DNA of 64,000 nucleotides from an uncultured Campylobacter sp. (GCA_963515915.1 CAUPZQ010000007.1:180-64179); one strand, 5' to 3'; positions 1 to 64,000 are shown, counted from the stretch's first letter. A program made the numbers and translations. Notes: generated by a model from the letters alone, not told the origin.

Positions 1-243
1 AAATACCGCTGCGATACAAAGGGCCTGCGCGATGCTAAGAGTGCCGCTTCCGACGCTGGTGCCGAAGGAATTTGCCACGTCGTTTCCGCCGATATTAAAG
101 GCCATAAAGATGCCCAAAAATACCGAAACTAAAAATAGCATTTTATCGCCGCTTCCTATAAAACCGAATCCCCAGATAAGAAAATAGATTGTTACGCCGC
201 AGAATATGCCGTAGAAAATGAGACTTATCTTGCTAGATTTCAT
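1..243 (-). CDS. Inorganic phosphate transporter, PiT family (first 81 codons; gene runs off the window start)
   Basis: Reverse-complement translation from the ATG at 243-241 gives MKSSKISLIFYGIFCGVTIYFLIWGFGFIGSGDKMLFLVSVFLGIFMAFNIGGNDVANSFGTSVGSGTLSIAQALCIAAVF. The GGNDVANSFGTSVGSG block is the PiT/PHO4 signature. It is absent from the ORF track because the window edge truncates it. Confidence 0.8.
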   Translation of the reverse strand, partial: MKSSKISLIFYGIFCGVTIYFLIWGFGFIGSGDKMLFLVSVFLGIFMAFNIGGNDVANSFGTSVGSGTLSIAQALCIAAVF

Positions 244-416
244 AGCTCTCCCTTAAAATCCGCGAAATTTTACCACACGCGCCTTAATCCCCACTAAATC
301 GCACGGGCGAGGTATATAAATTTTAATTTTAAAAGCGAATTTAGTGGCGCGCGCTAAGCTTTATTAAATCAATACTTCGTTACAATCCGCATTAAATTTT
401 AAAACCGAGGCGAAAA

Positions 417-806
417 ATGTCTAGAATTCCGCTGCAAAGCCCATATTTCGGAATATTCATAATGCTAATCCTGGCTTTTTGCGTCTTTTCGCTCATCGTT
501 AAACTATCCTCTTTGGTAGGCTCGCGTTTGGCAGACAGGCGCGACGAGCGGCTAAAGGGTGAAATTTACGAAAGCGGACCCGAGGCCGTCAAGCAGCCCA
601 ACCGAATGAACTCCCACTTTTTTTTGATAGCCGTGCTTTTCATACTTTTTGACGTCGAGATTATCTTTATGTTTCCATGGGCGGTAAATTTTAAAATTTT
701 AGGCGTGTTCGGGCTCGTGGAGATGGCGTTTTTCATCGTATTATTAGGCATCGGTTTCATCTACGCCTGGAAAAAAGGAGCGCTAAATTGGCAGAGCATA
801 AGATAA
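417..806 (+). CDS. nuoA: NADH:quinone oxidoreductase subunit A
   Basis: 129 aa with 3 TM segments. The [13 protein letters not shown] block is typical of NuoA/ND3. It is the first gene of a colinear nuo cluster. Confidence 0.9.
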
Positions 807-1297
807 ACTACGCGCGCGAAAACGGACTTCCCGTAGTTCTCACCACCGTCGATAAGCTGATCGCGTGGGGCAGGAGTAACTCTTTGTGGGCGATGACATA
901 CGGGCTTGCGTGCTGTGCGATCGAGATGATGGCGGCGGGCGCGGGCAGATTCGACTTCGACCGCTTCGGCACGATATTTCGCGCAAGCGCCAAGCAATCG
1001 GATGTGATGATAATCGCAGGCACGCTTAGTAAAAAGCACGCCGAGTTTACGCGCCGCCTATACGACGCGATGCCAGAGCCCAAATGGGTCATCAGCATGG
1101 GTAGCTGCGCCAATACCGGAGGGATGTTTAATACCTACGCGACCGTGCAGGGTTGCGACCGCATAGTGCCCGTGGATATCTATCTGCCTGGATGTGCGCC
1201 TCGCCCTGAGACGCTGCAGTTTGCGCTGATGGTACTGCAAAAAAAGATCCGCACCCAAACCCCGCGCCGCGCGCAAAAGGCAAAAAGGCTGATCTGA
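788..1297 (+). CDS. nuoB: NADH:quinone oxidoreductase subunit B
   Basis: TTG start overlaps the nuoA end. The [15 protein letters not shown] and PGCAPRPE motifs are the N2 Fe-S ligand motifs of NuoB/PSST. Confidence 0.93.
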
Positions 1298-2085
1298 TGA
1301 GAAAATTTAATCCCAAAGGCGATCAGAGTAAAAAAAATTACTACAAAGACAGATTTTTCGTTCCCGAAGAAACGCCGAAGTTGGAGGTAGCCAAAAGCGA
1401 TTTTAAAGACGATCTGGACGCGCTTGAAGGCATTCAAATTTTAAACTCATACGTGGAATTTAACACTCTCGTGCTCTATGTGGAGCCTGGACAAAATTTA
1501 GCGGCGCTGCGTGCGCTTAAGAGCGCGGGATATGAAATTTTATGCGAGCTAAGCGGCGTGGATTTTACCGAGGCTCGCGGCGGCATCGAGGTTTTTTATC
1601 AGCTTTTGGATATCAAAAGAGCGCGCCGCGCGCGGCTAAAGTGCTTCGTGCCGAATGAGAGCTTTTTGCAAAGCGCTGCGGGTATCTACAAAAGCGCGAA
1701 CTGGGCGGAGCGCGAGCTATACGATATGATGGGCGTTTGGATTGAAAATCATCCAAATTTGGCGCGCCTAATAATGCCCGATGATTGGTTCGGACACCCG
1801 CTTTTGAAGTCCTACCCGCTGCAAGGAGACGAGTTTGCCAAGTGGTACGAGGTGGATAAAATTTTTGGGGTTGGCGCGCGTGAGCGGATCGGCGAAGAAA
1901 ACCGAAATTCCGCATTCGTGGATGAAAAAGATACCTTTAACTTTACGCGGCTCTATCATGAGGGCGGTTACGGCGAGCCGCGGCCGCAAGAGAAAATTTT
2001 ACAAGAATATCAGGAAGAGGGCGGCGTGCGTTTCGTAAAACGCGTTAAACGCGGAATTTACAAGATCATCACAAAGAGAAAATAA
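1297..2085 (+). CDS. nuoC: NADH:quinone oxidoreductase subunit C
   Basis: ATGA overlap with the nuoB stop. The [18 protein letters not shown] and HPLLKSYPL blocks are typical of the 30-kDa subunit. Confidence 0.9.
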
Positions 2086-3311
2086 TGCAAAATCCAAGCA
2101 AGCTAAGACCGTTTTTCGAAAACATCGAGTACGAGCGCGAGGGCGCGAATATGATCTTAAATTTCGGTCCGCAGCACCCAAGCGCGCACGGCCAGCTAAA
2201 GCTAGTGCTGGAGCTTGACGGCGAGCGTATCGTGCGTGCGCGTCCGGGCGTGGGCTATATGCACCGAGGCATCGAAAAGATGGCAGAAAATATGATCTAC
2301 GCGGAATTCGTCCCCGTAACCGACCGCGTCGATTATGTCGCATCGGGCTCGAACAACTACGGCTTTTGCGCCGCGGTCGAGAAGCTCTGCGGCATCGAAG
2401 TGCCGCGCCGCGCGCAGATCATCCGCACGATCTTGCTGGAGCTTAATCGCATTAGCTCGCACCTTCTGTTTTTGGGTACGCACGCGCTTGACATCGGCGC
2501 GATGACGGTATTTCTCTACTGCTTTCGTTCGCGCGAATACATACTCGATCTCATAGAAAAATACTGCGGCGCGCGCCTTACACACAATAATATCAAAATC
2601 GGCGGCGTGTTTTTGGACCTGCCTAACGGCTGGTTAGAAGAGATGTTGAAATTTTGCGACGAATTCCCGAGCGATATTAAAGAATTTGAAGATATGCTTG
2701 ATACCAATAGAATTTGGCTGATGCGAACCGAGGGCGTGGGCGTGATTTCGCACGAAAATGCCCTTAGCTGTGGCTGTAGCGGAGTAACACTGCGCGCTAG
2801 CGGACATGCGTGGGATATCCGCAAAGAGGAGCCCTATCTCATCTACGACGAGCTTGATTTCGAAGTGCCGTATGCGAGCGAGGGCGACTGCTACGCGCGT
2901 TATAAATGCTATATGGCGGAGATGCGCGAGAGCCTTAAAATTTTGCGCCAGTGCGCGAAGCACTACCCGCTGAGCGATCCGCAAATTTTAGCGATCAATC
3001 CCGCTTACGTAAATCCTAGCAAAGAGCAGATTATGGCGCAAAACTACTCGCTGATGCAGCATTTCGTACTGGTTACGCAGGGCTTACGCCCGCCCGTGGG
3101 CGAAATTTACGCCGCGAGCGAGAGCCCTAAGGGCGAGCTTGGATTTTATATCCGCTCGATGGGCGAAAGTCGTCCGTACCGCCTTAAGATCCGCACGCCG
3201 AGCTTTTGGCACTGCGCGGTCTATGAGGAAATTTTACCCGGGCAGTATCTTGCCGACGCCGCGGCGATCATCGGCAGCACTAATATTATCTTAGGCGAGG
3301 TGGATCGATGA
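2085..3311 (+). CDS. nuoD: NADH:quinone oxidoreductase subunit D
   Basis: 408 aa with [21 protein letters not shown] and C-terminal GEVDR, which are NuoD/49-kDa signatures. Confidence 0.93.
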
Positions 3312-3538
3312 AACGCTACGATTTAAGGCATCTGGGCGATAAATTTTTAAACCGCATGGGCGAAATTTTAAAAAATTCCGCTCACGGCGAGACGATGATC
3401 TTTATGTTTGAGATGGGCGATTTCAGCGCGGTTCAAAAAAGCGCAGATCTGGTGGAGGGGCTAAATTCCACGCTTTTAAATTCCATCCGATATAACCAGG
3501 TCGATTGGATGATAGTCGCAAAAAAGGGGAGAATATGA
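3308..3538 (+). CDS. Small protein occupying the nuoE slot (C. jejuni Cj1575c-like); not a NuoE homologue
   Basis: 76-aa ORF whose start overlaps the nuoD stop. It has no 2Fe-2S Cys motif. Its position matches the Campylobacter/Helicobacter-type nuo operon. Confidence 0.65.
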
Positions 3539-4242: not shown

Positions 4243-4243
4243 A

Positions 4244-6937
4244 ATGGCAAAAATCACGATCGACGGTAAAGCTTGCGAGTGCGACGAGGGCGAGTACATC
4301 CTGCAGGTCGCGCGTCGCTGCGGCGTTTTTATCCCTGCGCTTTGTTATCTAAGCGGAGGTACGCCGACGCTCGCATGCAGACTTTGTATGGTCGAAGCGG
4401 ACGGCAAGCGCGTCTATAGCTGCAACGCCAAGGCCAAGGACGGCATGGTCATCTACAGCCGCAGCCCTGAGATCGACGCTGAGCGCGAAGCGATTGCGCA
4501 GGTTTATTGTATCAACCATCCGATGGCGTGCGGGGTTTGCGATCAAAGCGGCGAGTGTGAGCTTCAAAATTTAGCCCATCTGATGCGCACAAATACCCAA
4601 AGCTACGCTATCCGCGATACGGCGCGCGAGGTACAGGATTGGGGATATTTAAGCTACGATCCTAGCCTTTGTATCGTCTGCGAGCGCTGTATCACCGCCG
4701 CAAAAGACCGCTTGGGCGTAGATGCGTTTAAGCTCGTTCCGCGCGGCGGAGACGCGCCGAGCAAGGAGCAAAAGGACGCGATGCCTAAAGACGCCTACGC
4801 CGTGTGGAACAAACTTCAAAAAAGCCTAATCGCGCGGGTAAATGAAAATGATGATTGCGTAAACTACGGCGAGAGCGCGGCGGTCTGCCCGACGGGGGCT
4901 CTAGTAGAGAGCGCGTTTAAATACGTTTCAAACGCCTGGGAGCTGCGTCAAATCCCCGCTTCCAACCCGCACAGCAGCGACTGCGAACTGCTTTATTACG
5001 AGGTCAAGCGCCGCGGCATAGGCGACCCGCGTGAAAAAATTTATCGCGTTAGCAGCGACATAAATTTTAGCGTTCTGCATGCAGGAGCGCGCTTCGGCTG
5101 GGATTTTTCAAACGAGCGGGCGAGCAAAAACGAAGCGGTTTTTAACCGCATCGTGCGCGGCATCGAGGATGGCGAGATCAAAAATATCAAATTTAATAGC
5201 TTTATCACCAACGAAGAGGCGCGGATTTTAGAGCTTTTGCGGCAAAAATTTAAGCTCGCTCTGATTAACGACGAAGCGCTTGCGTATCAAAAATTCCTGC
5301 GCGAATTTTCTAAGCTTAGCGGCACGAAATTTTATAATGCGGATTCGCAGACGGTTAAAAATAGCGATTTCATCGTAGTTTGCGGCACATTTTTACGCAG
5401 CGACGCGCCAAATCTGGGCTATACGGTAAACAGCGCCTGCAAGCTAAATAAGGCAAGCGGGATCTATTTTCATCCGTTTTGCGACGAGGGCATTAAGGGT
5501 TTTGGCAAAAATTTTATCCATCAGCCGCACGCTGCGGGCTTGGAGGCGCAGATCCTGCTTTGGATCTTGCAAAAGTTCGGGCGCGATCTGCCTGAGTGGC
5601 TGGATGCGAAACTCGCGGCGGAATTTGAAATTTCGCGCGCTGCGGCGAAGGAAAATTTAGACGAGAAATCCGTGGGTTCGCAAAATCCTGAAAATTCTGC
5701 GGAGGCAAATGGCTCTGAGAACGTTGCGAGTGCGAGCGGTGCCGAAAATTCCGCAGGCACAAGCGCCGCAGATTCCATAAAGAATTCCGCGCAGAATACC
5801 GAGAATCCTGCGGAAAGTAAAATTTCAAATTTCGCCCGTGCGCTAGGTCTGGATGAGCAAAAAGTAGATGAAATTTTGGCCAAAAAGGAGCATTTTTCGC
5901 TCATCATCGGCGAGGATTTTATCCGCACGCCAAATAGCGCTATGCTCGCGCGGCTGGCAGGCTTGGTGCAGCGCTATACGCCATTTAAAGTACTAGTGAT
6001 GCCGCCGCGCACTAACAGCCTGGGCGTCGCGCTCATCTGTGAGCTTAGCGCGCAAATGAGCGCGGGCGAGACGCTAGGCTACAACGAAGTGGGCGATATA
6101 AGCTTTGGCGTGCTGGAAGCGGATCTGGATGCGCCTAGTTTGGTGCAGCAGGAGGGCACGTTTACGAATTACGACAAGCGCGTGGTGCCTACTAATGCGG
6201 CGCTTGATTACGGCGGATACGAGCTAAACGACATCGCCTGTGCGCTGGGAGTTTGCGCGGAGCACGCGATCGACTATACACCTAGCTTGGGCGCGGATTT
6301 TGAGCCGATTAAATTTGACGATTTAGAAAATTTCTACGACAACGGCGGCGCAAACCACCGCGGATATGAGTTGCGAAACAAGGAGCTCGCTGCTAGCGAG
6401 GAGGAGTTTGAAATTTCGCTTTCAGCGCCGCTTAGCGCGGGCACAGGCGAAACTTTAATCTATGAGGCAAATCCGCTGCATCACTTCAATAAATTTAGCG
6501 GCGCAAGCAGCGGGCTGGGCGAAGCGGGCGCGCTGTATCTAAGCCCTGGCATCGCCGAAGCTCTGGGCGTGAGCGTGGGCGACGTCGTTAAAATTTACAA
6601 AGCGGACGGCGCGAGCAACGATAAAAAAACTAGCGGCGCGGGCAAAACGAGTGCCGCTAATGATAAAAGCGGTGCCGGTCGTGCAAAAAAAGCAGATCGC
6701 GTTAGCGACGCGCATAAAGCAGACGGCGCCGGTGATGAAAACAGCGAAAACGGCGCGACTGAGCTCGTAAATTTAAACTGCGAAATCGTCGCTAGCGTAA
6801 AGACCGATCCAGGCTTTAGCGGGGTGTATCTGCCGTATTTTGACGAGAAACTAGGCGGCGAGATATTTTTCAAAACCTCACGCTACGCAAGCGTGAAAAT
6901 CGATAAAATTCCAAAGGAGAGGGCAGATGAGCGATAG
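4244..6937 (+). CDS. nuoG: NADH:quinone oxidoreductase subunit G, with two internal low-complexity inserts
   Basis: N-terminal Fe-S Cys clusters are present (CYLSGG..CRLC; HPMACGVCDQSGEC; CIVCERC; AAVCPTGA), followed by a long molybdopterin-oxidoreductase-like body. Operon position fits. The 897 aa include the ENSA-type segment (about 5640-5830) and a DKK/GAG segment (about 6600-6760). Confidence 0.9.
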   Translation: MAKITIDGKACECDEGEYILQVARRCGVFIPALCYLSGGTPTLACRLCMVEADGKRVYSCNAKAKDGMVIYSRSPEIDAEREAIAQVYCINHPMACGVCDQSGECELQNLAHLMRTNTQSYAIRDTAREVQDWGYLSYDPSLCIVCERCITAAKDRLGVDAFKLVPRGGDAPSKEQKDAMPKDAYAVWNKLQKSLIARVNENDDCVNYGESAAVCPTGALVESAFKYVSNAWELRQIPASNPHSSDCELLYYEVKRRGIGDPREKIYRVSSDINFSVLHAGARFGWDFSNERASKNEAVFNRIVRGIEDGEIKNIKFNSFITNEEARILELLRQKFKLALINDEALAYQKFLREFSKLSGTKFYNADSQTVKNSDFIVVCGTFLRSDAPNLGYTVNSACKLNKASGIYFHPFCDEGIKGFGKNFIHQPHAAGLEAQILLWILQKFGRDLPEWLDAKLAAEFEISRAAAKENLDEKSVGSQNPENSAEANGSENVASASGAENSAGTSAADSIKNSAQNTENPAESKISNFARALGLDEQKVDEILAKKEHFSLIIGEDFIRTPNSAMLARLAGLVQRYTPFKVLVMPPRTNSLGVALICELSAQMSAGETLGYNEVGDISFGVLEADLDAPSLVQQEGTFTNYDKRVVPTNAALDYGGYELNDIACALGVCAEHAIDYTPSLGADFEPIKFDDLENFYDNGGANHRGYELRNKELAASEEEFEISLSAPLSAGTGETLIYEANPLHHFNKFSGASSGLGEAGALYLSPGIAEALGVSVGDVVKIYKADGASNDKKTSGAGKTSAANDKSGAGRAKKADRVSDAHKADGAGDENSENGATELVNLNCEIVASVKTDPGFSGVYLPYFDEKLGGEIFFKTSRYASVKIDKIPKERADER

Positions 6938-7932: not shown

Positions 7933-9123
7933 ATGGCAAGATACATTGAGATCGATAAACGAGCTCCTATTAGATCCGGCGGCGATAAGCTTCGCAGATT
8001 TCTAGCCCGCACCTTTAGTGGCGAGCTTTTCGTGGGGCTGTGGGTTGTTTTGCGAAATATGTTTAAGCGCGGTGGCTCGCATACGCTTCGGTATCCTATG
8101 GAAAAATTTGTCATGCCGCCTAGATACCGCGGCGTGCACAAGCTTATGCGCCTGCTTGAAAGCGGCAGCGAGCGCTGCATCGGATGCGGCTTGTGCGAGA
8201 AGATCTGCGTGGCAAACTGTATCGCGATGGAGACCAGCCTCGGCAGCGACGGTCGCAAAAAAGTAGATAACTACTCGATAAATTTAGGGCGCTGCGTCTA
8301 TTGCGGGCTTTGCGCGGACGTCTGCCCCGAGATCGCTATCGTGCACGGCTGCGAATATGAGCTTGCGAGCGAGCAGCGCGCGTATTACGGCTTTAAAGAG
8401 GATCTTTTGATTCGCGGCGAAAATTTATGTTTAAACGGCGCGGCGCAGGAGTTTGCAGGCTATGGCAGCCTGGATGAAAACGCAGGCGCGCGGATCAAGG
8501 TGACGCCGAATGCCTATATAAAAAGCGACGCCGCAAGCGATGAGCTAAGCTTAAAGAGCGCGGATTCAAATTTAAAAAGCGCCGCGGAAAGCTCTAAAAA
8601 AGAGGGTGTCGCTAGCGATAAAATTCTATTTTCAGGCGGCGCGGGCTTAAGCGGCGAAATTTCAGCCGAGCGGCAAGACGTGGGGCGGGCAAGCTTAAAG
8701 GAAAGATCCACCACGGACGCCGAAAATTCTAAAGAGAATTCCGCGGACGCTGAAAATTCTACGCTTGATTTGGCGCGAAATTCCAAAGGAAATTCCGCCT
8801 CACAAAATGCAAAAGATTCCGCTACGGATAGTAAAAATTTGGCGGAGAATTCTAAAGAAAATTTCGCTCCGCAGAGCGCCGAAGATTCCGCCGCTCAAAG
8901 TAAAAATTTTAAAGATAATTCTGTTGCGTCGCACGCCGAAAATTCTGTCGGTGAGCTTGCTACGGACGGCGATTCTGCGGAAAATTCTAAAGAAAATTCC
9001 GCCATGCAAGACTCGGGGAGTTCCGCCGCGCGAGGTAAAAAATCTAAGGCAAATTCCAAAAAGAATTCCGCCGCGGACGCTGAGAATTCTACGCAAAGCT
9101 CCGCGCAGGGGGAGGAGCAATGA
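7933..9123 (+). CDS. nuoI: NADH:quinone oxidoreductase subunit I with a long C-terminal low-complexity extension
   Basis: Two ferredoxin motifs (CIGCGLCEKICVANC and CVYCGLCADVCPE) lie within the first ~165 aa. The remaining ~225 aa are Asn/Ser/Ala/Glu/Lys-rich repeats (ENSKENSA, NSADAENST x2). Confidence 0.9.
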   Translation: MARYIEIDKRAPIRSGGDKLRRFLARTFSGELFVGLWVVLRNMFKRGGSHTLRYPMEKFVMPPRYRGVHKLMRLLESGSERCIGCGLCEKICVANCIAMETSLGSDGRKKVDNYSINLGRCVYCGLCADVCPEIAIVHGCEYELASEQRAYYGFKEDLLIRGENLCLNGAAQEFAGYGSLDENAGARIKVTPNAYIKSDAASDELSLKSADSNLKSAAESSKKEGVASDKILFSGGAGLSGEISAERQDVGRASLKERSTTDAENSKENSADAENSTLDLARNSKGNSASQNAKDSATDSKNLAENSKENFAPQSAEDSAAQSKNFKDNSVASHAENSVGELATDGDSAENSKENSAMQDSGSSAARGKKSKANSKKNSAADAENSTQSSAQGEEQ

Positions 9124-15134: not shown

Positions 15135-16928
15135 ATGGAAAACTATGAAAGACTATTTAATGATTTGAAATCAAAAGGGATGATAATAGAAAATATCAAT
15201 TCTATTCATATTAGAAATTATATAAAAAAGGAAGATGAAAGATATATTATTAAGGATTTTAGAAATTCTCCCAGGATAAATGATGCGTTAGACCTGCCTA
15301 AGATTATTTGCGAGCTTGAGGTAGAATTCCAAAATTGTGATTTTTATAGTCTAAATATAACGGGAGTTATAGGAGAAAAAATAAGTTTTATTGGTTGTAA
15401 ATTTAAAGAAGCAATCTCATTTGAAAATTCTAAATTTAAAAAATACGTTTCGTTTGAGAAATCCGAATTTAACAGCATTGTTGACTTTTCAAATTGCATA
15501 TTTGAAAAACTGGTAAATTTTGATAACTCTGACGAGAAAGAACATACAAAACCAATAAATTTTTCTAATGTTATATTCCAAGATAACGCTTATTTTAATA
15601 ATATCGTATTTAATAATTATGCAGACTTCCATGGAGCCATATTTAAAAAAGTAGCATCTTTTTACGGCGTGCGATTTAAGGACTTTGTAAATTTTTCCGC
15701 CACTATATTTGAAGGAGATTTAAATTTAGTAAATTCTAAACTGGACTTTGAATATGAAGATTTGAAGCAAGCTATAATCAAAGCTGCAAAAAGCAGCTCT
15801 ATTAAAGAGACGGCGAATGATTTCCGCGATAGTTTTAGAGTTTTAAAAAATACAGCGACTAAAACGGGGAATCATCTTGATGCTATAAGATACTGCGTTT
15901 CCGAATTATATTGTAAGGAAATAGAGCTAGAAGACGATCTTAAAAATAAAGAATCTAAAGATCCGGCAAGAAAGAATATTAAAAATTTTATAGATTTAAT
16001 GCTATTAAAACTTTATCGTGTTACGAGCGACCATCATTCAAATCTCGTAAAGATCATTAATTTTGCCGCCACTGTTGTAGTGTTTTATGGGATCTTAAAT
16101 TGGTTTTTCCCTCGTTTGTATGTATGCTTAGAAGAAGGGAAGCGCGGCTTACAAAATTGGTTATTTTTCTTTGTTTTTATCTTTATAGCAGTTATGTTTG
16201 CAATTTGGATTATAAGGGCGGTCGCTCAAAGGTGGAAAGACCTAGTATTTGTCTTAATACTTCCAATTGCCCTTATTGCCTTGCTTCAGTTTTCTTTTCG
16301 GGATTCATTTATGTCGGAAGCTAATGATATTCTTAATACTACGGGTGCATTTGTTCTTATATTTTTATCCCTTATTTGCGGGTATACCTATACCTCTGAA
16401 AAGATGGGATACAAAATCTCTTACGTTTTTCATATTTCTATTTATGTTTGCTTTATAATGTTTTTATTCGTTAAGCCAGAGCTTTTTAATCCATTTAATG
16501 GGATATTTCAAAGTACAAAAATAGAGCCTAATAAATTTAGAAATTATGTATTAGAAAACAATGAAAGTGCACCAAAGGAAATTTTGAATTTAATAAAGAT
16601 TAATAGCGGCAAAAGTGTGGATTATGATATTAAACTAATTGCGAATCATCGCCTTGCAATTCTAAAGCAAATAGACAGCGAAAATAACCAATCAAAACCC
16701 GAAGGAAGATTAAATGTATTCAGTTATTTTTGTCCTTCCGCATATTTAGAAGAATCTACGAATGATAAAAAATATGTGCAAATTTATAACATTCTTTTGG
16801 ATGATGAAATTTCGGAAATATCTAAAAAAATATCAAAAGCGGGCTATTTGGTTTATGCTTTTATCATGCTTTTGATTATTTACTCTCTTACAAAAACGGC
16901 GCGTCGTAACTCCATCGTACCTAGTTAA
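15135..16928 (+). CDS. Pentapeptide-repeat-like N-terminal domain fused to a multi-pass membrane domain; function unknown; likely horizontally acquired
   Basis: 597-aa ORF with an AAGAGGA RBS, 20 nt after the nuoN stop. Residues ~65-205 form serial 5-residue-period F/L/I repeats (CDFYSLNITG..ISFIGCKFKEAISFENSKFKKYVSFEKSEFNSIVDFSNCIFEKLVNF..). About 5 TM segments lie at aa ~305-460, plus a C-terminal TM. G+C hand counts: 10/60 at 15181-15240 and 21/60 at 16081-16140, against 41/60 in nuoN at 14941-15000. Confidence 0.75.
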   Translation: MENYERLFNDLKSKGMIIENINSIHIRNYIKKEDERYIIKDFRNSPRINDALDLPKIICELEVEFQNCDFYSLNITGVIGEKISFIGCKFKEAISFENSKFKKYVSFEKSEFNSIVDFSNCIFEKLVNFDNSDEKEHTKPINFSNVIFQDNAYFNNIVFNNYADFHGAIFKKVASFYGVRFKDFVNFSATIFEGDLNLVNSKLDFEYEDLKQAIIKAAKSSSIKETANDFRDSFRVLKNTATKTGNHLDAIRYCVSELYCKEIELEDDLKNKESKDPARKNIKNFIDLMLLKLYRVTSDHHSNLVKIINFAATVVVFYGILNWFFPRLYVCLEEGKRGLQNWLFFFVFIFIAVMFAIWIIRAVAQRWKDLVFVLILPIALIALLQFSFRDSFMSEANDILNTTGAFVLIFLSLICGYTYTSEKMGYKISYVFHISIYVCFIMFLFVKPELFNPFNGIFQSTKIEPNKFRNYVLENNESAPKEILNLIKINSGKSVDYDIKLIANHRLAILKQIDSENNQSKPEGRLNVFSYFCPSAYLEESTNDKKYVQIYNILLDDEISEISKKISKAGYLVYAFIMLLIIYSLTKTARRNSIVPS

Positions 16929-22850: not shown

Positions 22851-23506
22851 TGGTATATTTTTACGATAAGCTTGCAGGCGAACAGAGCCTGATTTTGCAG
22901 AATGATCAGTTTTTGCACCTAAAGGCTAGGCGAGCAAGGGCGGGCGAGCGCATAGACGTGCGCAATCTAAAGGACGGGGCGAGTTATCTATATGAGATCG
23001 CCGAAATTTCGCGCAAGGGTGCGGCTCTGAATTTGGTTTTTAAAAGCTCCGTTTTTACGCCGAGCCACGATTTTTGCGTCGCTTGGGCGGTCGTCGAGAG
23101 CGCCGTGATCGAAAAGAGCCTGCCTGCGCTAAACGAGATGGGCGTCGGGCGGCTTGTTTTGGTCTATGCCGATCTGTCGCAGAAAAACGTGCGGCTCGAT
23201 TTGCAAAGGATGGATCGGATTTTGATTAACTCGTCTCAACAATGCGGGCGAAATTCCATCATGCAGATCGAGGTTTTGAGCGGCTCGGACGAGCTTGCGC
23301 AAAGATATGAAAACGTAAGCCTGATCGATTTTGGCGGCAAGAACATCGACATTTTCGGCGGCGAGGAGATTGCGTTCATCGGCCCCGAAGGCGGGTTTTC
23401 GCCGCGCGAAAGGGAGAAATTTAAAAACGCCTATGCGCTTAATAGCCCCTATATTTTGCGCTCAAATACCGCGCTAATCGCAACTTGCGCGAAGCTGATG
23501 TTTTAA
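22850..23506 (+). CDS. rsmE: 16S rRNA (uracil1498-N3)-methyltransferase
   Basis: The C-terminal GPEGGFSPRE motif and RSNTA block are typical of the RsmE/SPOUT family. Confidence 0.82.
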   Translation: MVYFYDKLAGEQSLILQNDQFLHLKARRARAGERIDVRNLKDGASYLYEIAEISRKGAALNLVFKSSVFTPSHDFCVAWAVVESAVIEKSLPALNEMGVGRLVLVYADLSQKNVRLDLQRMDRILINSSQQCGRNSIMQIEVLSGSDELAQRYENVSLIDFGGKNIDIFGGEEIAFIGPEGGFSPREREKFKNAYALNSPYILRSNTALIATCAKLMF

Positions 23507-23792
23507 ACGCTCGGCAAATTTTAAAATTTAAAAGCCGCGCGCTTTAAATTTTGGAATTTAAAATTTGCCCTGCGCGATCCGCTATGTTTATCTGCGGCTT
23601 GACGCACTGCGCGTATTTGCCGCGGCGCATCTTCGCGCGCTGTATTTTGCACGCCGCAGTGAAATAAAATTTTACTCGCAAGTAGGCTAAATTTTAAAAT
23701 TTTCGCGTCCAAAAAGCATGCCTGAAAGAAAATCAGCGCTTTGCCGAGAGTTTTTTTAAAACCCTTTAAATTTGCTTTTTAGATAAAAAAGT

Positions 23793-30372: not shown

Positions 30373-31317
30373 ATGTTAGATTTAGCAATTATCGGCGGCG
30401 GCCCTGCAGGGCTAGCGGCGGGGCTTTATGCTACTAGAGGCGGTTTAAAAGACGTCGTGATGTTTGAGATGGGTATGCCTGGTGGGCAGATCACCTCAAG
30501 CTCCGAGATGGAAAACTATCCTGGCGTTGCTGCGGTGACTGATGGGATGAGCTTTATGGCGCCTTGGCAGGAACAGTGCTTCCGCTTCGGGCTGAAGCAT
30601 GAGATGGTGCGCGTGCTACGCATCTCAAAAGACGGCGACGGAAATTTTACGATCTATCTCGAGGGCGATCAAACACGACGCGCGCGTGCCGTTATCGTAG
30701 CTACGGGCTCTACTCCGCGCCGCGCGGGGATCGAGGGCGAGGATGAGTTTTTCGGTCGCGGCGTCAGTACCTGCGCGACCTGCGACGGGTTTTTTTACAA
30801 GGGCAAAGAGGTTGCCGTCCTAGGCGGCGGCGATACGGCGCTAGAGGAGGCTCTGTATCTAGCTAAAATTTGCTCTAAAGTCTATCTGATCCATCGCCGC
30901 GATGAGTTTCGCGCCGCGCCTTCGACCGTGCAAAAGGTGCGCGAAAGTGAGAATATCGAGCTCATTACAAGCGCGCTCGTAGAGCAGATCAAAGGTGATG
31001 CAAGCGGCGTAACGGGCGTCGTTGTCAAAGATAAAACAAGCGGCGCCGCGCGTGAGCTGCAGCTACCTGGGATCTTCGTATTCGTGGGGCTTGACGTGCG
31101 AAACGAGGTGCTAAAGGGCGATGATGGTAAGTTCATTTGCGACGTCACGCCAGGCGGGCAGGTCGCGGTAAATTTAAAGATGCAAACAAGCGTACACGGA
31201 CTATTCGCGGCGGGCGATATGAGGCAAGATGCGCCTAAGCAGGTCGTTTGCGCGGCAGGCGACGGCGCGGTTGCCGCACTTAGTGCGATCGCATATCTGC
31301 AAGGACACGATAAATAG
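30373..31317 (+). CDS. trxB: Thioredoxin-disulfide reductase
   Basis: [15 protein letters not shown] motif, CATCDGFFY redox-active disulfide, and [18 protein letters not shown] motif. Confidence 0.95.
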
Positions 31318-31474
31318 GCCTATATTCGGCGTAAAATTTCACGGCGCGGCGGGCGAAGCTACTTCCGTCGCGCTTTAAATTTAAAATCATACCTGAAATT
31401 TTGAATGAAATTTTATTATAAGAAAAGCGTCTAAATTTTAAAATTTTATCAAATTTAGTCGCGAGATGAGGCAC

Positions 31475-32343: not shown

Positions 32344-32440
32344 GGCGAGAGAGGGAGGGAATCGAACCCCCCGGAAAACGGTCAACCGCCCTCCTATCGG
32401 ATTTGAAGTCCGCAGACGCCACCAGGTCGCCATCCTCTCC
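32344..32440 (-). tRNA. selC: tRNA-Sec (anticodon UCA), selC-like
   Basis: The reverse complement reads GGAGAGGATGGCGACCTGGTGGCGTCTGCGGACTTCAAATCCGATAGGAGGGCGGTTGACCGTTTTCCGGGGGGTTCGATTCCCTCCCTCTCTCGCC. It has anticodon loop CUUCAAA (UCA), a 9-bp long variable arm (GGAGGGCGG/CCGTTTTCC with G-U pairs), and T-loop GGTTCGATTCC. I could not fold the acceptor/D arm into the textbook bacterial 8/5 Sec form by hand, so the ends are approximate. Confidence 0.72.
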
Positions 32441-37518: not shown

Positions 37519-37619
37519 TAGGATGAGATCGGGTGCGCAAAATTTTAAAATTTAAGGCGTAAATTTAAAATTTTAGATACAATTCGATTCTCGGCGAGAG
37601 CCGAAACGAAAGGCATAAA

Positions 37620-39614: not shown

Positions 39615-40654
39615 ACTTACAGGCAAGCTTTTGGGCGTGCCCAGGTGAGAAATTTCAACTAGATTAGAGATTTAAATGTAGACTCTTATGGAATTTTACG
39701 TGGAATTTAGACGATGGATTTTGTGAAATTTTAGCTAGATTTGCCCGCAAAATACGGTGAGATTTTAAAATTTCATTCGCATCGCGCTTAGATTTTCATG
39801 AAACACAAAATTTAAACGCAGGCTAGAGTAAAACCGCAATGCGAGATTAGATAGCGTGGGGGCTAAGCTTTAAATTTTAGATTTTGCGCAGACAGGCGCC
39901 GTTAAATTCCTTCTTCTAATTTATTGATTGGTGCGGTGGGTTTATTTTTAAATTTGGCGACTTTTGATTTGCTTTTTTGGCAGGAGTTGCACGAATTCTA
40001 TCATGCGATCTTGGTAAAAATTTAATGTAAAGCTTCGCAAAAACTTAAATTTTTAGATTTGGAATTTTGCCTGGATTTTGTGGCTTTGAAATTTTAAAAG
40101 CTCTAACGGCTCGAAGCTTGAGCGTTAAACTGGCTTAATGAGCTATGACAGGATTTCATTAACCCGGTTTTTAGATTTATGCGAAATTTTAATTTCGTCT
40201 TGTCGGGCTCAATGAAATTTCGCTAGGTCGTTCGGAGGGCGTCGTTTAGCCTATCTTGCGTGAAATTTGCGCTCAGATAAATCCTGCCCGCTTAAGTTTT
40301 AAAGCCTAGTGAAGCTTTTTGGAATTTAGCTCAGCAAAATTCGTGGTCTTAAAAATTTGCCGGCTTGGGTAGAGCTTAAAAGCTCAGCAGGATTTGCACG
40401 CTTGAAGGAATTTATTAGCCAAGCAATTTTATAAAATTCCGCTCGCTTTAGCTTGCGTGAAATTTTTAAAATTTCATTTTGCTAAAGCTCTTGCGCAGCT
40501 AGGTCTGCGCAGAATTTTTCAAAATTTTATTTTGCAAGACCTTATGGCTATGTGGTTTGCGCAAATTCTATCCAGCTTTGCCTCTAAATTTTAAAGCAGA
40601 GCTAGGCTTTTAAAATTTTATAGTTTGGGCCCAGCGGCTCGGCTCGGAGGATAA
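39615..40654. repeat. 1.04-kb ORF-free, RAATTY-rich tract with degenerate tandem units, splitting modC from modB
   Basis: No ORF of 60 aa or more on either strand. It has dense GGAATTT/GAAATTT/AAATTT words, partly spaced ~10-12 bp apart (39690-39740, 40045-40095). Three GCTCAG..CTT units lie at 40271, 40329 and 40382. Near-palindromes TGAAATTTTTAAAATTTCA (40458-40476) and CGAAATTTTAATTTCG (40181-40196) are present. Confidence 0.8.
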
Positions 40655-45463: not shown

Positions 45464-47570
<2,107 letters not shown>

Positions 47571-47573
47571 ACC

Positions 47574-47618
47574 CGGTGAAATTTTAAAATTTCACCCGTT
47601 GCGGGCGGTGCGACCGCC
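47574..47618 (+). terminator. Two consecutive hairpins after purA (terminator-like)
   Basis: A perfect 22-nt palindrome GGTGAAATTTTAAAATTTCACC (47574-47595) is followed by GGGCGGT-gcg-ACCGCCC (47602-47618). There is no clean U-run after the second hairpin. Confidence 0.45.
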
Positions 47619-57938: not shown

Positions 57939-57976
57939 TTTACAAATTTGTGACGAAATTGTCACGAATTTGTAAA
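57939..57976 (+). terminator. 16-bp hairpin after rpsI (terminator or operator)
   Basis: TTTACAAATTTGTGAC-gaaatt-GTCACGAATTTGTAAA has one T-G pair and is followed by TTCTTTAAAAATTTT. Confidence 0.5.
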
Positions 57977-58032
57977 TTCTTTAAAAATTTTATGGTAATA
58001 TCGAATTACAACTTTATTTGAAAGGATGTTTA

Positions 58033-59055: not shown

Positions 59056-59074
59056 TCTTTTCTAGATCCACATA

Positions 59075-59100
59075 AGCGGGGCTTCGGCTCCGCTTTTTTT
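59075..59100 (+). terminator. Rho-independent terminator after the OmpA-family gene
   Basis: AGCGGGGC-ttcg-GCTCCGCT followed by TTTTTTT. Confidence 0.85.
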
Positions 59101-59121
59101 ATATCCAAATTAAATTTTAAA

Positions 59122-61164: not shown

Positions 61165-61238
61165 TGGGCTATCGTCTAATGGCAGGACAACAAACTCTGG
61201 ATTTGTGAATATAGGTTCGACCCCTATTAGCCCATCCA
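61165..61238 (+). tRNA. tRNA-Gln (anticodon CUG)
   Basis: It folds by hand into a cloverleaf. Acceptor TGGGCTA/TAGCCCA, D stem GTCT/GGAC, anticodon stem ACAAA/TTTGT with loop CTCTGGA, T arm ATAGG-TTCGACC-CCTAT, discriminator T, and an encoded CCA. Confidence 0.92.
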
Positions 61239-61407
61239 TTCAAATTTTAACTCCATTTATTGTAGCTGGCCTAAAATTATTTTAGTAGGCGCCTGTTTGT
61301 GCATAAAACCGAAACGCCTAATGTCAGAAAGAAAATGGTGAAGCCAAATCCGTCAATCGATTAAATTTTGATGATTATAGGATGATTTGCCGCTTTAAAG
61401 CGGCGGA

Positions 61408-61869
61408 TTATTTGATTTTTTCTTTGCCTTTGTAAGTGGCGATGCTTTGATACGAGCCGTCTTTTTTAAACGCCACCACGTCATAGACCTCGGGCTGAGA
61501 GCCTTGCTCCATACCTGGTGCTTCTAGTGGCATGCCAGGTACTGCTATGCCGATAACGTCTTTAGGCTTATTTTTTAGTAGCGTGCGGATCTCGCTTGCT
61601 GGCATATGCCCTTCGACTACATATCCGTCTACGATCGCGGTGTGGCAGCTAGCGAGCTCCAGCGGAAGCCCAAGCTCATTCTTCTTCTGGATAAGCGGCT
61701 CGTCGGCCAGCGAAATCATCTCGACTTCAAATCCGTTTTGCTCCATGTATTTTGCCCAGTTGTGACAACAGCCGCAACTCTCGCCGTGATAGACCTTGAC
61801 ATGTTCGCCCGCCGAGACATAGCTTCCTAATGCCGCTAAAAGCGCACCTACAAATAAAATTTTCTTCAT
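61408..61869 (-). CDS. DUF411-family (CopG-like) periplasmic metal-binding protein
   Basis: 153 aa with a signal peptide, the CGCCHNW motif, and the CHTAIVDGYVVEGHMP block typical of DUF411. GGAG RBS. Confidence 0.8.
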   Translation of the reverse strand: MKKILFVGALLAALGSYVSAGEHVKVYHGESCGCCHNWAKYMEQNGFEVEMISLADEPLIQKKNELGLPLELASCHTAIVDGYVVEGHMPASEIRTLLKNKPKDVIGIAVPGMPLEAPGMEQGSQPEVYDVVAFKKDGSYQSIATYKGKEKIK

Positions 61870-62017
61870 ATTTTACTCCAGTGATTAAAAGTCCTCGATT
61901 ATACAATACGAATAGTAAATTTTTAAGAGCGAACCATATAACTCTAAGATTAAATTTGACGAAGCAGACCCGCTTGTAAGCCGAAATTTTAAAATTTCGG
62001 CGTCGCGGATAAGTTGG

Positions 62018-62446
62018 TTATAGGCACTGAGAGAGTGCTGATTTAATAGCGGATTTTGATACGTAGCCTTCCGAATCGCTGGTAAGTGATACGTCGCAGC
62101 CTGGCTTATAGTTTTTCCAGGTGTAGATATTGCCATTGTCTTCGGTTGTTTTGATGGAGTCTGGCTGTTTATTCCATGCAGAAATTACTTGATTGATATG
62201 AAATGCATCGCTGCGGTCTTTCGGCGCATTAGTCATACCTGTGCTATCGGGCAAGGCCGTTTCGACCATATCGGTAGTGCCTGCGGTGGAAACCTCTTGA
62301 ACTTTATCATTTACGCCGCCGATATTTGTTTTACTGCTTTGGGATTTTGTTTGATTGCGTACTCCGCTTGGTTCGTTGGATATATTCCAGTTGGAACAAC
62401 CGATAAAAAATACCGCTGCTATGAGCGCAGCTATTAAATTTCTCAT
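62018..62446 (-). CDS. Lipoprotein, unknown function
   Basis: The start is taken at the ATG with a GGAG RBS (MRNLIAALIAAVFFIGCS lipobox). The ORF track begins 5 codons earlier. Confidence 0.65.
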   Translation of the reverse strand: MRNLIAALIAAVFFIGCSNWNISNEPSGVRNQTKSQSSKTNIGGVNDKVQEVSTAGTTDMVETALPDSTGMTNAPKDRSDAFHINQVISAWNKQPDSIKTTEDNGNIYTWKNYKPGCDVSLTSDSEGYVSKSAIKSALSQCL

Positions 62447-62665
62447 AAAATTCTCCTTCAAAAATTTCGTTGCGATAGTAGCACATTTATCTTTAGTTTA
62501 AAATAAATCCGAGCCCTTGAAATTTGAAATTTCGTAGGAATTTTGCGAGGCGTTTCAGTAGGAATTTATAAAATTTCGGATAATATTCAAAATTTAATAC
62601 CAAACGGGCTTTTAAATTTTGCACGGCAAATGCCTTTTTGGCTACCAAATTTTAAAGGATTTTTG

Positions 62666-62974
62666 ATGTATGCTATCATCAAACACGGCGGCAAGCAGTA
62701 TAAGGTCGAAGAGGGCAACTACCTAAATTTAGACCATTTTAATGCTGAGCCGAAAGCAAAGCTCGAGCTTAGCGAAGTTTTAGCGCTAAACGACGGCGAG
62801 TTAAAGGTAGGGGCACCGTTCGTAAAGGGTGCCAAGGTGGTTTTGGAGGTCGTTTGCGAAGGCAAGGATAAAAAAGTCGTTATCTTCAAAAAACGCAGAC
62901 GCAAAGATTCAAAAGTAAAACGCGGCTTCAGACGCCAATACACCCGCGTCAAAGTCGTTTCGATTAACGCATAA
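62666..62974 (+). CDS. rplU: 50S ribosomal protein L21
   Basis: [17 protein letters not shown] is the canonical L21 N-terminus. The ORF-track start at 62543 is an upstream in-frame extension. Confidence 0.95.
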
Positions 62975-62984
62975 AGGATAGGAA

Positions 62985-63242
62985 ATGGCACACAAAAAAG
63001 GTCAAGGTTCAACCCAAAATAATAGAGATAGTATCGGACGCCGCTTGGGTGTTAAAAAATTCGGTGGCGAGTTTGTGCGCGCGGGCAACATCATCATCCG
63101 CCAGCGCGGCACTGCGACGCACCCAGGCTGCAACGTAGGCATGGGCAGCGATCACACGATTTTCGCGCTGATCGACGGCGTCGTAAAATTTGAGCGAAAA
63201 GATAAAAACCGCAAAAAAGTATCGGTTTATCCGGCTGCGTAA
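62985..63242 (+). CDS. rpmA: 50S ribosomal protein L27
   Basis: [40 protein letters not shown] is the L27 signature. Confidence 0.96.
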
Positions 63243-63258
63243 ATATCGCTAAATCTTC

Positions 63259-63279
63259 GGGGGCGCAAGCCCCTCTTTT
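63259..63279 (+). terminator. Rho-independent terminator-like hairpin after rpmA
   Basis: GGGGGC-gcaa-GCCCCT followed by CTTTT. Confidence 0.6.
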
Positions 63280-63351
63280 AAAATTTCACCCGTTTAAAAA
63301 TTATCTTCAACTCATTTGGCTATAATTGCCGTTTCAAATTTAAGGATAGCT

Positions 63352-64000
63352 ATGTTCATAGACAGCGTAAAATTTAGCGTCAAATCAGGGGGCGGCGGCG
63401 CAGGTTGCGTCAGCTTCCGCCGCGAAAAATTCGTCATCCTAGGCGGTCCCGACGGCGGCGACGGCGGCGACGGCGGCGACGTGTATTTCAGAGTCGATAA
63501 AAACTCCCACACCCTCTCATCCTATAAGGGCAAGCGGGAGTTTAAAGCACAAAACGGCGCACCCGGCGAGGGTCGCAAAAAGACGGGCAAAAGCGGCGAG
63601 GATCTCTATCTCATCGTCCCTCCAGGCACCAGCGTTTACGACGAGGATAGCGGCGAGCTGGTGCTTGATATGCTAAATGACGGCGAGACGAGGCTGTTTT
63701 TAAAAGGCGGCAAAGGCGGGCTTGGCAATGTGCACTTTAAAAGCTCGATCAACCAAGCCCCCGAATATGCGCAAAAAGGCCTAGAGGGGCAGACGCGCGA
63801 GGTGCGCTTGGAGCTAAAACTTATTGCAGACGTTGGGCTCGTAGGCTTTCCAAACGTGGGCAAAAGCACGCTAATCTCGACCGTCTCAAACGCCAAACCC
63901 CAGATCGCAAACTACGAGTTTACCACTCTCACGCCAAAGCTTGGTCTAGTCGAGGTTGATGAATACAGCGGCTTTGTCATGGCCGATATCCCTGGCATCA
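63352..64000 (+). CDS. obg: GTPase Obg (N-terminal part; continues past the window end)
   Basis: The ATG at 63352 gives [46 protein letters not shown]...[16 protein letters not shown], the Obg fold. It then reads [15 protein letters not shown] (G1 motif). It is missing from the ORF track because no stop lies within the window. Confidence 0.93.

Follow-up and report, generated by a model that had tools for sequence, protein, structure and literature searches.

The window analysed here is a 64-kb stretch of DNA from an uncultured Campylobacter with 47% G+C. Its NuoD protein is 98–99% identical to those of uncultured Campylobacter MAGs, which places the host in this genus, and its identity is 82% with NuoD of an unclassified Campylobacter isolate, falling to 75% with those of C. 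concisus and C. geochelonis. On the plus strand lie the nuo genes for NuoG, with a low-complexity insert (5650–5850), and NuoI, with a low-complexity C-terminal extension (8500–9123), followed by a pentapeptide-repeat gene (15135–16928). An ORF-free tract of 1,040 bp (39615–40654) separates the genes for an ABC-transporter ATPase and for a permease. The most frequent hexamer of the window is AAATTT, a palindromic form of the degenerate word RAATTY. In total, 655 RAATTY sites were counted (448 AAATTT, 95 GAATTT, 86 AAATTC and 26 GAATTC), giving 10.2 sites/kb, in line with the frequent sites, about one per 100–150 bp of chromosome, expected of the Campylobacter RAATTY system. Their mean spacing is 97 bp with a coefficient of variation of 1.16. 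The hand counts of the original prediction (15 sites in 8701–9100, two in 7933–8400 and four in 39661–39780) were reproduced exactly. Its statement that RAATTY saturates intergenic tracts and inserts was borne out in that densities are highest there, at 21/kb in intergenic DNA (16/kb for AAATTT alone), 28/kb in the ORF-free tract (29 sites, including 39661–39780) and 37/kb in the NuoI tail, but it proved too narrow, as the word is in excess in ordinary coding DNA too (8.8/kb).

To quantify the excess, the counts were compared with several null models. Base composition alone predicts about 76 RAATTY and 21 AAATTT sites, which makes the AAATTT excess 21-fold. Dinucleotide-preserving shuffles of the window, the null named in the original prediction, gave 223.9 ± 12.4 RAATTY (z = 34.7, about 3-fold excess) and 90.4 ± 8.5 AAATTT sites (z = 42, about 5-fold). 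With the same type of shuffle, the 116 intergenic AAATTT sites compare with 23.8 expected (z = 21.5, 4.9-fold). In coding DNA, 329 AAATTT sites were found where a codon-order shuffle predicts 52.6 (z = 40, 6.2-fold) and a synonymous-codon shuffle 101.5 (z = 31, 3.3-fold); for the 500 coding RAATTY sites the corresponding expectations are 126 and 220. The over-representation within genes is therefore 2.3- to 6-fold above codon-preserving shuffles, as is looked for in uptake words of the DUS/USS type. All three reading frames are populated by coding AAATTT (87/120/122). Since the excess appears in every frame, over both codon shuffles and in intergenic DNA, it acts at the DNA level rather than the protein level, and it is reached through synonymous codon choice, the choice of neighbouring amino acids and very dense intergenic DNA.

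Next, we asked which words are enriched. Relative to dinucleotide content, the observed/expected ratio (O/E) is 5.0 for AAATTT, 1.7 for AAATTC/GAATTT and 0.85 for GAATTC, while the seven other NAATTN classes, which are not RAATTY, are all depleted (0.09–0.55). Among these are AAATTA/TAATTT (0.55) and AAATTG/CAATTT (0.25), whose A/T content is nearly as high. Of the single-base variants, most of those that no longer match RAATTY are depleted (0.31–0.78), and the sole variant that still does is enriched (1.5). RAATTY makes up 83% of AATT cores in the window versus approximately 34% in sister genera. The enrichment pattern thus matches degenerate R-AATT-Y and not A/T richness. No enrichment was seen for GAATTC (1.1-fold relative to the synonymous shuffle), which is a valid form of RAATTY and costs least where genomic G+C is higher; this indicates that the pressure favours AAATTT in particular. 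A weak extended consensus, T-N-AAATTT-N-A, surrounds the sites.

The dominance of AAATTT with GAATTC unenriched could also mean that A3T3 is favoured for DNA structure, i.e. curvature, nucleoid-protein binding or promoter architecture, and that its match to RAATTY is coincidental. TTTAAA is 2–3 times enriched as well, and intergenic DNA avoids long homopolymers, with AAAAAA reaching 0.12 and TTTTTT 0.26 of the expected count, both of which would suit such a role. However, a structural preference does not account for the depletion of AAATTA/TAATTT and AAATTG/CAATTT alongside enriched AAATTC/GAATTT, and the excess is equally strong in all three gene frames, unlike a structural promoter signal. 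It is also absent from sister genera with similar G+C. A search of the window for 10–11 bp helical periodicity of RAATTY sites detected none, nor any other period within 64 kb; the proposal that phased A/T tracts imply curvature thus found no support here. We regard the structural explanation as very improbable.

Could the sites be by-products of repeats, be it of peptide repeats in the inserts or of a small element scattered through intergenic DNA? Locally, this is the case. The NuoI extension, recognized by translation and comparison, consists of degenerate repeats rich in (E/K)-N-S and contains repeat families D3 and D5. NuoI is 396–419 aa long in the clade of the window versus 193–245 aa in other Campylobacterota, and Pfam assigns it only 4Fe-4S domains (residues 81–135). 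All 15 tail sites within 8701–9100 (8 AAATTC, 4 GAATTC and 3 AAATTT) fall into one codon register, R-AAT-TCN/TTN, read as x-Asn-Ser/Phe. The RAATTY cluster of the NuoI tail is a by-product of this Glu/Lys-Asn-Ser peptide repeat. Similar ENS/KNS-type units occur in the NuoG insert, which holds six RAATTY sites and a copy of family D5 (5765–5790). The count of 12 AAATTC/GAATTC among the 15 tail sites was correct. The conclusion once drawn from it, that word forms are adapted to their context, finds no support, given the shared register and given that AAATTT, stop-free in every frame, still forms 66% of coding RAATTY (327 of 498).

Intergenic DNA offers a second candidate repeat. The 14-nt palindrome AAATTTTAAAATTT, composed of two AAATTT sites in overlapping register, is present in nine copies, eight of them intergenic, where about none are expected. 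Most of the nine double-site palindromes lie just past gene ends, and two of six folded clearly better than shuffles. One copy of AAATTTTAAAATTT (23516–23529) starts 10 bp past the stop codon at 23506 (folding z = -1.75). The palindrome at 47579–47592, with G+C arms GGTG...CACC, begins 9 bp past the stop codon at 47570 and forms a hairpin of -23.4 kcal/mol (z = -3.9); a second GC hairpin follows. Another, with arms GCCG...CGGC (61984–61997), lies between two minus-strand genes (z = -3.2). The hairpin at 31433–31446, between convergent genes ending at 31317 and 31475, is no better than shuffles, and the palindrome at 37540–37553 lies in a 101-bp spacer (37519–37619) ahead of AAATTTAAAATTT at 37561. 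Nevertheless, peptide repeats and the palindrome together cover only about 35 of the 655 sites, the commonest site-centred 12-mer has just seven copies in the window, and conserved genes of unique sequence carry the excess. The tract at 39615–40654 showed no repeat-family relation to the other tracts, and nothing longer than about 24 bp is common to the large intergenic tracts. The earlier suggestion of a repeat-family by-product therefore stands for 8701–9100 and 5650–5850 only; as a general explanation it is refuted, and we give it almost no weight.

To see how widely the excess is distributed, we compared loci around the nuo operon across the Campylobacterota. The 27 Campylobacter loci, many of which are not independent (about 12 lineages in all, C. 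concisus alone supplying 11 loci), contain 9.5 ± 1.2 RAATTY/kb independent of their G+C content (0.30–0.51). In 46 loci of other Campylobacterota the density is 1.8 ± 1.0/kb and drops as G+C rises. Every sampled Campylobacter locus showed the excess, and sister genera, including those of similar G+C, lacked it, so that the word is shared genus-wide, as is the case for DUS/USS-type words. Published genome counts are in the same range, with 8.4 sites/kb in C. jejuni (PMC4294202) and, for approximate genome sizes, about 8.4/kb in C. coli (count from PMC8627207) and about 6.6/kb in C. fetus (count from PMC13436318). Within Campylobacter, O/E climbs with G+C (rho = 0.86), from a slight excess of 1.2–1.5 at 30% G+C, which indicates that the excess compensates for composition. 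Orthologous nuo genes contain 64 AAATTT sites in the window, 78 in C. concisus, 11 in Sulfurospirillum and three in a Sulfuricurvum of 47% G+C. Of the 56 aligned AAATTT sites of the window, only 21 coincide with a C. concisus site, so individual positions turn over at a maintained density.

The constraint on individual sites was assessed with four relatives of about 94% nucleotide identity. RAATTY sites were retained in 90–97% of cases, compared with 71–76% for all hexamers and 83–84% for other A/T-only hexamers. At third codon positions, A/T changed in 2–7% of cases inside RAATTY versus 16–18% elsewhere. This reduced silent change persists within the same codon types (Mantel-Haenszel odds ratio 0.12–0.39) and, in three of the four comparisons, against A/T runs of five or more, and it disappears at the degenerate R position, for example in GAA codons. 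As expected of a HIP-type word, a hyper-abundant palindrome is conserved between genomes beyond neutral expectation. Together with the roughly 5-fold excess of AAATTT over dinucleotide content, this protection at silent positions gives RAATTY, mostly as AAATTT, the look of a signal maintained across the genome rather than a peculiarity of some spacers.

The reduced substitution inside sites would equally follow from biased repair. A sequence-specific mutation or repair bias that turns near-matches into RAATTY could generate functionless sites neutrally, and both the lower substitution away from the motif and the depletion of its one-off neighbours agree with this. Methyl-directed or very-short-patch-like correction, the Elhai model, was proposed for HIP1 (PMC4390886). 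Yet a density of about 9.5/kb held across a 20-point G+C range looks like a set-point, not a by-product, and amino-acid adjacency is involved, the synonymous shuffle expecting about twice as many AAATTT sites as the codon-order shuffle. Moreover, m6A does not deaminate into a mismatch, and we know of no such repair system for m6A. A neutral origin thus seems distinctly unlikely.

The signature is weaker in two regions of probable foreign DNA. The pentapeptide-repeat gene (30% G+C) is the only gene of the window with a significantly low share of RAATTY among AATT cores (17 of 31, 0.55 versus 0.83; binomial p = 2e-4). An immunity-gene islet of 35% G+C upstream showed a share of 0.65 versus 0.89 in two of three strains.

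An orphan methyltransferase matching RAATTY is known for the genus (PMC13436318, PMC4294202); in C. jejuni the enzyme is M.CjeIAI of the D12 class (PMC4294202), and DNA uptake requires CtsM-methylated sites (PMC8468864, PMC8627207). A search for the [DN]PP[YFW] methyltransferase motif found none in the selected ORFs of the window, with three chance six-frame hits outside genes, and the 10 kb preceding the window, examined in three strains, held no methyltransferase either. The link to this system drawn by the original prediction gains indirect support from the Campylobacter host, the R-AATT-Y specificity, the genus limit and the silent-site conservation. Judging from sequence comparison, we moderately favour the interpretation that the sites are a maintained footprint, uptake-sequence-like or HIP-like, of CtsM/RAATTY methylation. 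RAATTY is the target of CtsM, an orphan N6-adenine methyltransferase conserved in the genus (M.CjeIAI type, D12 class), which is presumably encoded in this genome and would methylate the motif in this organism as well. In C. jejuni, methylated RAATTY tells the competence machinery that DNA is of its "own kind"; here, too, fragments carrying it would be preferentially taken up and recombined. As envisaged for Neisseria DUS and Haemophilus USS, such a preference and selection for exchange among kin could create and preserve sites over time and keep their density near one per 100 bp, which in a 47% G+C genome demands about threefold RAATTY and fivefold AAATTT excess. Three observations fit less well. 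The excess is slight in Campylobacter of 30% G+C. The preference for AAATTT is not predicted by a plain "any RAATTY" model and counts against this interpretation. In addition, one methylated site reportedly sufficed for C. jejuni transformation in the 2017 CtsM study of Beauchamp and colleagues; if so, a requirement for a site every 100 bp has no explanation.

Uptake bias, rather than another use of the methyl mark, would be the driving force in this scheme. Alternatively, CtsM-type methylation may keep the sites for another purpose, such as organising the chromosome or nucleoid, marking DNA for replication or repair, or epigenetic regulation. Any role in which methylated RAATTY is read would agree with the specificity, the restriction to the genus and the conservation at silent sites. 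Intergenic density is 2–3 times coding density, and HIP1, likewise an over-represented and conserved target of orphan methyltransferases, has been assigned a function in the nucleoid (PMC5861425, PMC4390886). On the other hand, no role of CtsM methylation other than that in transformation has been demonstrated (PMC8468864, PMC8627207), the spacing is irregular and lacks a period, and the positional turnover between species argues against site-specific regulation. We therefore consider a non-uptake role unlikely.

Finally, the methylation footprint that we favour can be compared with known systems. The closest is CtsM/RA(m6A)TTY discrimination in C. jejuni (Beauchamp et al. 2017, cited in PMC8468864, PMC8627207), with the same motif in the same genus and the same density of about 8–10 per kb; the words enriched here mirror the degenerate R...Y ends of the enzyme site. 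In C. jejuni-like genomes, with 30% G+C, the motif is near compositional expectation, whereas here the same density is held against 47% G+C, with AAATTT as top hexamer and GAATTC unfavoured. As in Neisseria DUS and Pasteurellaceae USS, a short word occurs far more often than expected across the core genome, genes included, is common to related species and weaker in probable foreign DNA, and may in places pair into hairpins after genes; build-up through uptake bias (molecular drive) is compatible with this. DUS and USS are non-palindromic words of 9–12 nt, read as sequence without methylation and occurring about once per kb, whereas RAATTY is a degenerate 6-nt palindrome with only the weak T-N...N-A extension, presumably read only when methylated and occurring about ten times per kb. 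Cyanobacterial HIP1 (GCGATCGC) is a G+C-rich octamer with 15- to 300-fold excess and kb-scale periodicity; RAATTY differs as an A/T hexamer with 5-fold (dinucleotide) to 21-fold (base-composition) excess and no periodicity within 64 kb. Like HIP1 and the alternate HIPs, it is a hyper-abundant palindrome, conserved within and between ORFs, whose one-off variants are depleted. HIPs are targets of conserved orphan methyltransferases and have recently been linked to methylation-dependent transformation efficiency (PMC4390886, PMC5861425, bioRxiv 10.1101/2024.09.10.611283).

RAATTY, a degenerate palindrome with the forms AAATTT, AAATTC/GAATTT and GAATTC, occurs 655 times in the window (10.2 per kb), and AAATTT, with 448 copies, ranks first among all 4,096 hexamers. 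Base composition alone leads one to expect about 76 RAATTY and about 21 AAATTT sites. Dinucleotide-preserving shuffles gave 224 ± 12 RAATTY (z = 35) and 90 ± 8.5 AAATTT (z = 42). The original prediction staked its case on an excess over a dinucleotide null, and this excess is present. Its hand counts of 15 sites in the NuoI tail, 2 in the nuoI core and 4 at 39661-39780 were reproduced exactly, as was its split of the NuoI-tail forms into 8 AAATTC, 4 GAATTC and 3 AAATTT. With Markov nulls of order 3-4 the observed-to-expected ratio (O/E) falls to 1.05-1.5; these nulls are uninformative, because the motif is already contained in their tetramers and pentamers, which absorb the signal.

AAATTT reaches its peak density of 16 per kb in intergenic DNA (116 copies against 23.8 expected, z = 21.5). 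Saturation had been proposed for intergenic tracts and inserts; the intergenic density is indeed the highest, but the limitation to these regions fails, as ordinary coding DNA is enriched too. The 329 coding copies of AAATTT compare with 52.6 after a codon-order shuffle (z = 40) and 101.5 after a within-gene synonymous-codon shuffle (z = 31), and are spread over the three reading frames (87/120/122). The frame spread, the synonymous shuffle and the excess between genes together indicate that the effect acts on DNA and rule out a protein-level cause. The excess works via synonymous codon choice (approximately 3.3-fold) and amino-acid adjacency (a further approximately 2-fold). The genes of a few very conserved membrane subunits, nuoB, nuoH and nuoJ, are nearly site-free.

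The specificity of the excess was assessed by comparing ten strand-symmetric NAATTN classes with their dinucleotide expectation. For the RAATTY classes O/E was 5.0 (AAATTT), 1.7 (AAATTC/GAATTT) and 0.85 (GAATTC), and all seven classes that violate R...Y were below expectation: AAATTA 0.55, AAATTG 0.25, CAATTA 0.27, CAATTC 0.16, CAATTG 0.09, GAATTA 0.24 and TAATTA 0.31. RAATTY flanks are present on 83% of the window's AATT cores. Likewise, one-base variants of AAATTT that break RAATTY mostly lie at 0.31-0.78 of the synonymous-shuffle expectation, while the sole variant that retains it is in excess, at 1.5. ATATTT (1.35) departs from this pattern, and so does AATTTT/AAAATT (2.2), whose surplus comes from its overlap with AAATTT. 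Other A/T palindromes (AATATT, ATTAAT, TAATTA) are depleted. Thus, the shape of the excess fits a degenerate RAATTY specificity in which the all-A/T form is strongly preferred. A simple "any RAATTY" model does not account for the lack of preference for GAATTC, which is a genuine discrepancy.

A favoured A3T3 DNA structure could also be invoked, and the earlier suggestion of helical phasing or curvature from A/T tracts pointed the same way. The phasing was not borne out: neither the pair-distance histogram to 120 bp nor the Fourier spectrum contains a 10-11 bp period, and the sites have no regular spacing and are slightly clustered (CV 1.16). The pair-distance excess is confined to lags 7-8 and is due to overlapping AAATTT(T)AAAATTT. 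Since phasing is missing and the specificity does not fit, the structural explanation is very improbable. Several further features of composition were observed. Intergenic homopolymers are strongly avoided (AAAAAA 4 against 34 expected, 0.12; TTTTTT 11 against 43, 0.26), and A3-4/T3-4 block alternations are plentiful in intergenic DNA. The whole window is two-toned, with the dinucleotides GC, CG, AA and TT at 1.4-1.8 times expectation, the mixed steps AC/GT, CA/TG and CC/GG at 0.56-0.82 times, and TTT, AAA, GCG and CGC as the commonest trinucleotides. Rfam and tRNA scans of the window matched tRNA-Sec and tRNA-Gln alone, and no RNA family explaining the A/T-block tracts was found. The tRNA-Sec gene (32347-32440, minus strand) adjoins the gene for a 915-aa MMPL-family transporter.

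The window has a G+C content of 47.4% and a coding share of about 89%. In addition to the two tRNA genes it contains the nuo operon, miaA, an AddAB-type helicase-nuclease pair, a gene for a GGDEF-EAL protein and ABC-transporter genes. Its NuoD is 98-99% identical to that of several uncultured Campylobacter MAGs, 82% to that of an unclassified Campylobacter isolate and approximately 75% to those of C. concisus and C. geochelonis, and a 74.7-kb metagenome scaffold encodes an identical NuoD. The window is therefore chromosomal DNA of an uncultured Campylobacter lineage of unusually high G+C.

For comparison, loci flanking the nuo operon were collected by one NuoD-alignment scan of species-representative genomes and four exact-protein look-ups, giving 27 Campylobacter loci (about a dozen lineages) and 46 loci of other Campylobacterota, including Sulfurospirillum, Sulfuricurvum, Sulfurimonas, Sulfurovum and Nitratifractor. 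The Campylobacter loci (G+C 30-51%) contain 9.5 ± 1.2 RAATTY per kb with no fall as G+C rises, whereas the other loci (G+C 32-62%) contain 1.8 ± 1.0 per kb, falling with G+C. The fraction of AATT cores with RAATTY flanks (f) is 0.49-0.97 in the former and 0.15-0.56 (mean 0.34) in the latter. Within the Campylobacter loci, RAATTY O/E climbs with G+C (Spearman 0.86). AAATTT is the top hexamer in the window's clade, C. concisus and several other species; leaving aside the 30% G+C group, its O/E wherever it is top-ranked is 2.5-5.5, and species with 30% G+C have AAATTT at close to the expected frequency. Published data agree with this RAATTY density for C. jejuni, at 8.4 sites per kb (a methylome table lists 27,514 motif positions over the two strands; PMC4294202), and, with approximate genome sizes, give about 8.4 for C. 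coli (PMC8627207) and about 6.6 for C. fetus (PMC13436318). In codon-aligned orthologous nuo genes, AAATTT occurs 64 times in the window, 78 in C. concisus, 11 in Sulfurospirillum and 3 in a Sulfuricurvum that also has 47% G+C. Only 21 of the 56 aligned window sites share their position with C. concisus at similar site numbers, indicating that single sites turn over while density is maintained. In a separate observation, GAATTC is almost missing from C. concisus (8 counts in 106 kb with the two strands taken together, O/E 0.11) and absent from 15 kb of one locus of the C. concisus and related-MAG group; the window's clade has no such depletion. This scarcity suggests an EcoRI-type restriction system in C. 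concisus and the related-MAG species.

The constraint on individual sites was analyzed over the window's first 13 kb, where four relatives at approximately 94% nucleotide identity overlap it. Of the RAATTY sites, 90-97% are retained in these relatives; among hexamers as a whole the share is 71-76%, and among the remaining A/T-only hexamers it is 83-84%. Third-codon A/T positions differ in 2-7% of cases inside RAATTY versus 16-18% outside, and first and second codon positions display no such difference. The effect survives stratification by codon identity (Mantel-Haenszel odds ratios 0.12-0.39) and, when non-RAATTY A/T runs of at least five serve as the reference, holds in three of the four comparisons. 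ATT codons changed in none of 34-37 cases inside sites versus 20-27% outside; GAA codons whose third base occupies the degenerate R position had no constraint effect. These comparisons provide direct evidence for preservation of the sites themselves, through selection, biased uptake and recombination, or biased repair. Repair bias of a neutral kind, as the explanation of the whole pattern, appears quite unlikely.

A by-product of a repeat family had also been considered as the source of the sites. NuoI (7933-9123) has a low-complexity C-terminal extension of approximately 190 residues from about 8500, rich in (E/K)-N-S units. Among the compared Campylobacterota loci the extension is confined to the window's clade, where NuoI has a strain-variable length of 396-419 aa against 193-245 aa elsewhere. 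All 15 sites of the tail lie in one codon register, R-AAT-TCN/TTN, so this cluster is a by-product of the peptide repeat. NuoG (4244-6937) is 897 aa long versus 775-818 aa in relatives, with low-complexity Ser/Ala/Asn/Glu/Lys-rich inserts at 5650-5850 and about 6640-6800 built of units as in the NuoI tail. The proposed adaptation of coding inserts to "stop-free" forms is no general rule, as AAATTT is stop-free in every frame and makes up 66% of coding sites. As a general source the repeat explanation fails, and it holds locally only. All-against-all BLAST found no repeat family common to the large intergenic tracts, such as 39615-40654. This tract of approximately 1 kb separates the ATPase gene of an ABC transporter from the permease gene; it has 38% G+C and 28 RAATTY per kb, lacks any ORF that reaches 46 aa, and may be a decayed gene or spacer. 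A dispersed repeat or MITE was rejected as site source, as a repeat search, TRF and the all-against-all BLAST of intergenic tracts yielded only 16-37-nt low-identity families, which consist of the same A/T blocks.

The perfect 14-nt palindrome AAATTTTAAAATTT is present in nine copies (686, 23516, 23689, 31433, 37540, 47579, 60965, 61097 and 61984) versus approximately none expected, eight of them intergenic. The copies usually lie no more than about 10 bp from the end of a gene, mostly just after it, and frequently have complementary G+C arms; in two of the six folded copies the hairpins were clearly better than shuffles. They may be putative terminator-like or protein-binding sites.

Two low-GC regions that look foreign carry a weaker RAATTY signature. 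The 30% G+C pentapeptide-repeat gene at 15135-16928, directly 3′ of nuoN in surroundings of 47-53% G+C, is the sole gene significantly low in RAATTY fraction (f = 0.55, 17/31, p = 2e-4) and is probably acquired DNA. Just upstream of the window (approximately 2200-5400 in L086-L088, three loci with 10 kb of upstream sequence), a 35% G+C islet has f = 0.65 versus 0.89 in two of three strains. Its small genes encode Imm45/Imm53 immunity-protein domains and vary in content by strain, which makes a polymorphic-toxin immunity island the probable interpretation. RAATTY is also under-represented in C. fetus prophages (PMC13436318).

In C. jejuni, the orphan D12-class methyltransferase CtsM marks RAATTY, and the competence machinery admits only DNA with methylated sites (PMC8468864, PMC8627207, PMC4294202). 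Most probably, the excess is part of the CtsM/RAATTY system of Campylobacter. That it is the genomic footprint of this system as known from C. jejuni, with methylation, ctsM and uptake presumed for this organism, is the best-supported reading, which we hold with moderate confidence. An orphan D12-class enzyme would mark RAATTY in this lineage, and the competence machinery would admit only DNA with methylated RAATTY. Site-rich DNA would be preferentially taken up and recombined, and/or kin exchange would be selected, creating and preserving sites, and this pressure could hold density constant while G+C drifts. The [DN]PP[YFW] methyltransferase motif is absent from the window's selected ORFs (three chance six-frame matches lie outside any gene), and the 10 kb upstream contain no methyltransferase Pfam family. 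A methyl mark with another function, for example a HIP1-like nucleoid or regulatory role, seems unlikely. Tentatively, we extend the uptake reading to the genus: RAATTY could be a true uptake or kin-recognition sequence, maintained by selection or drive at a set-point of about 1 per 100 bp whatever the G+C drift, with reshaped synonymous codons, neighbouring amino acids and intergenic DNA in the G+C-richer lineages.

We found no description of RAATTY over-representation in the literature searched, nor of the compensation for composition, the pattern of excess and depletion that follows RAATTY or the constraint at silent sites; the latter three merit genus-wide study. The C. jejuni genome is A/T-rich and RAATTY is frequent there from composition alone, so that genome shaping by RAATTY is not discernible. 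G+C-richer Campylobacter provide the contrast: the same density against composition, R...Y flank specificity and silent-site protection. It thus becomes testable whether sequence evolution throughout Campylobacter genomes is driven by transformation bias or by some other use of the methyl mark, whether AAATTT is the preferred form, and whether the signal decays upon ctsM loss. In practice, the RAATTY share of AATT cores offers an easy means of marking out Campylobacter contigs and foreign DNA inside them, and the high site density is relevant to methylation-based enrichment and the design of transforming DNA.

If the uptake reading is true, RAATTY would be the first palindromic, methylation-dependent signal with a genomic footprint of the uptake-sequence type. 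The window's RAATTY would then work like cyanobacterial HIP1 and like DUS and USS, for which the same logic of uptake bias building up sites has been proposed. Paired DUS/USS sites occur in terminators, and the placement and folding of AAATTTTAAAATTT recall these as a tentative parallel.
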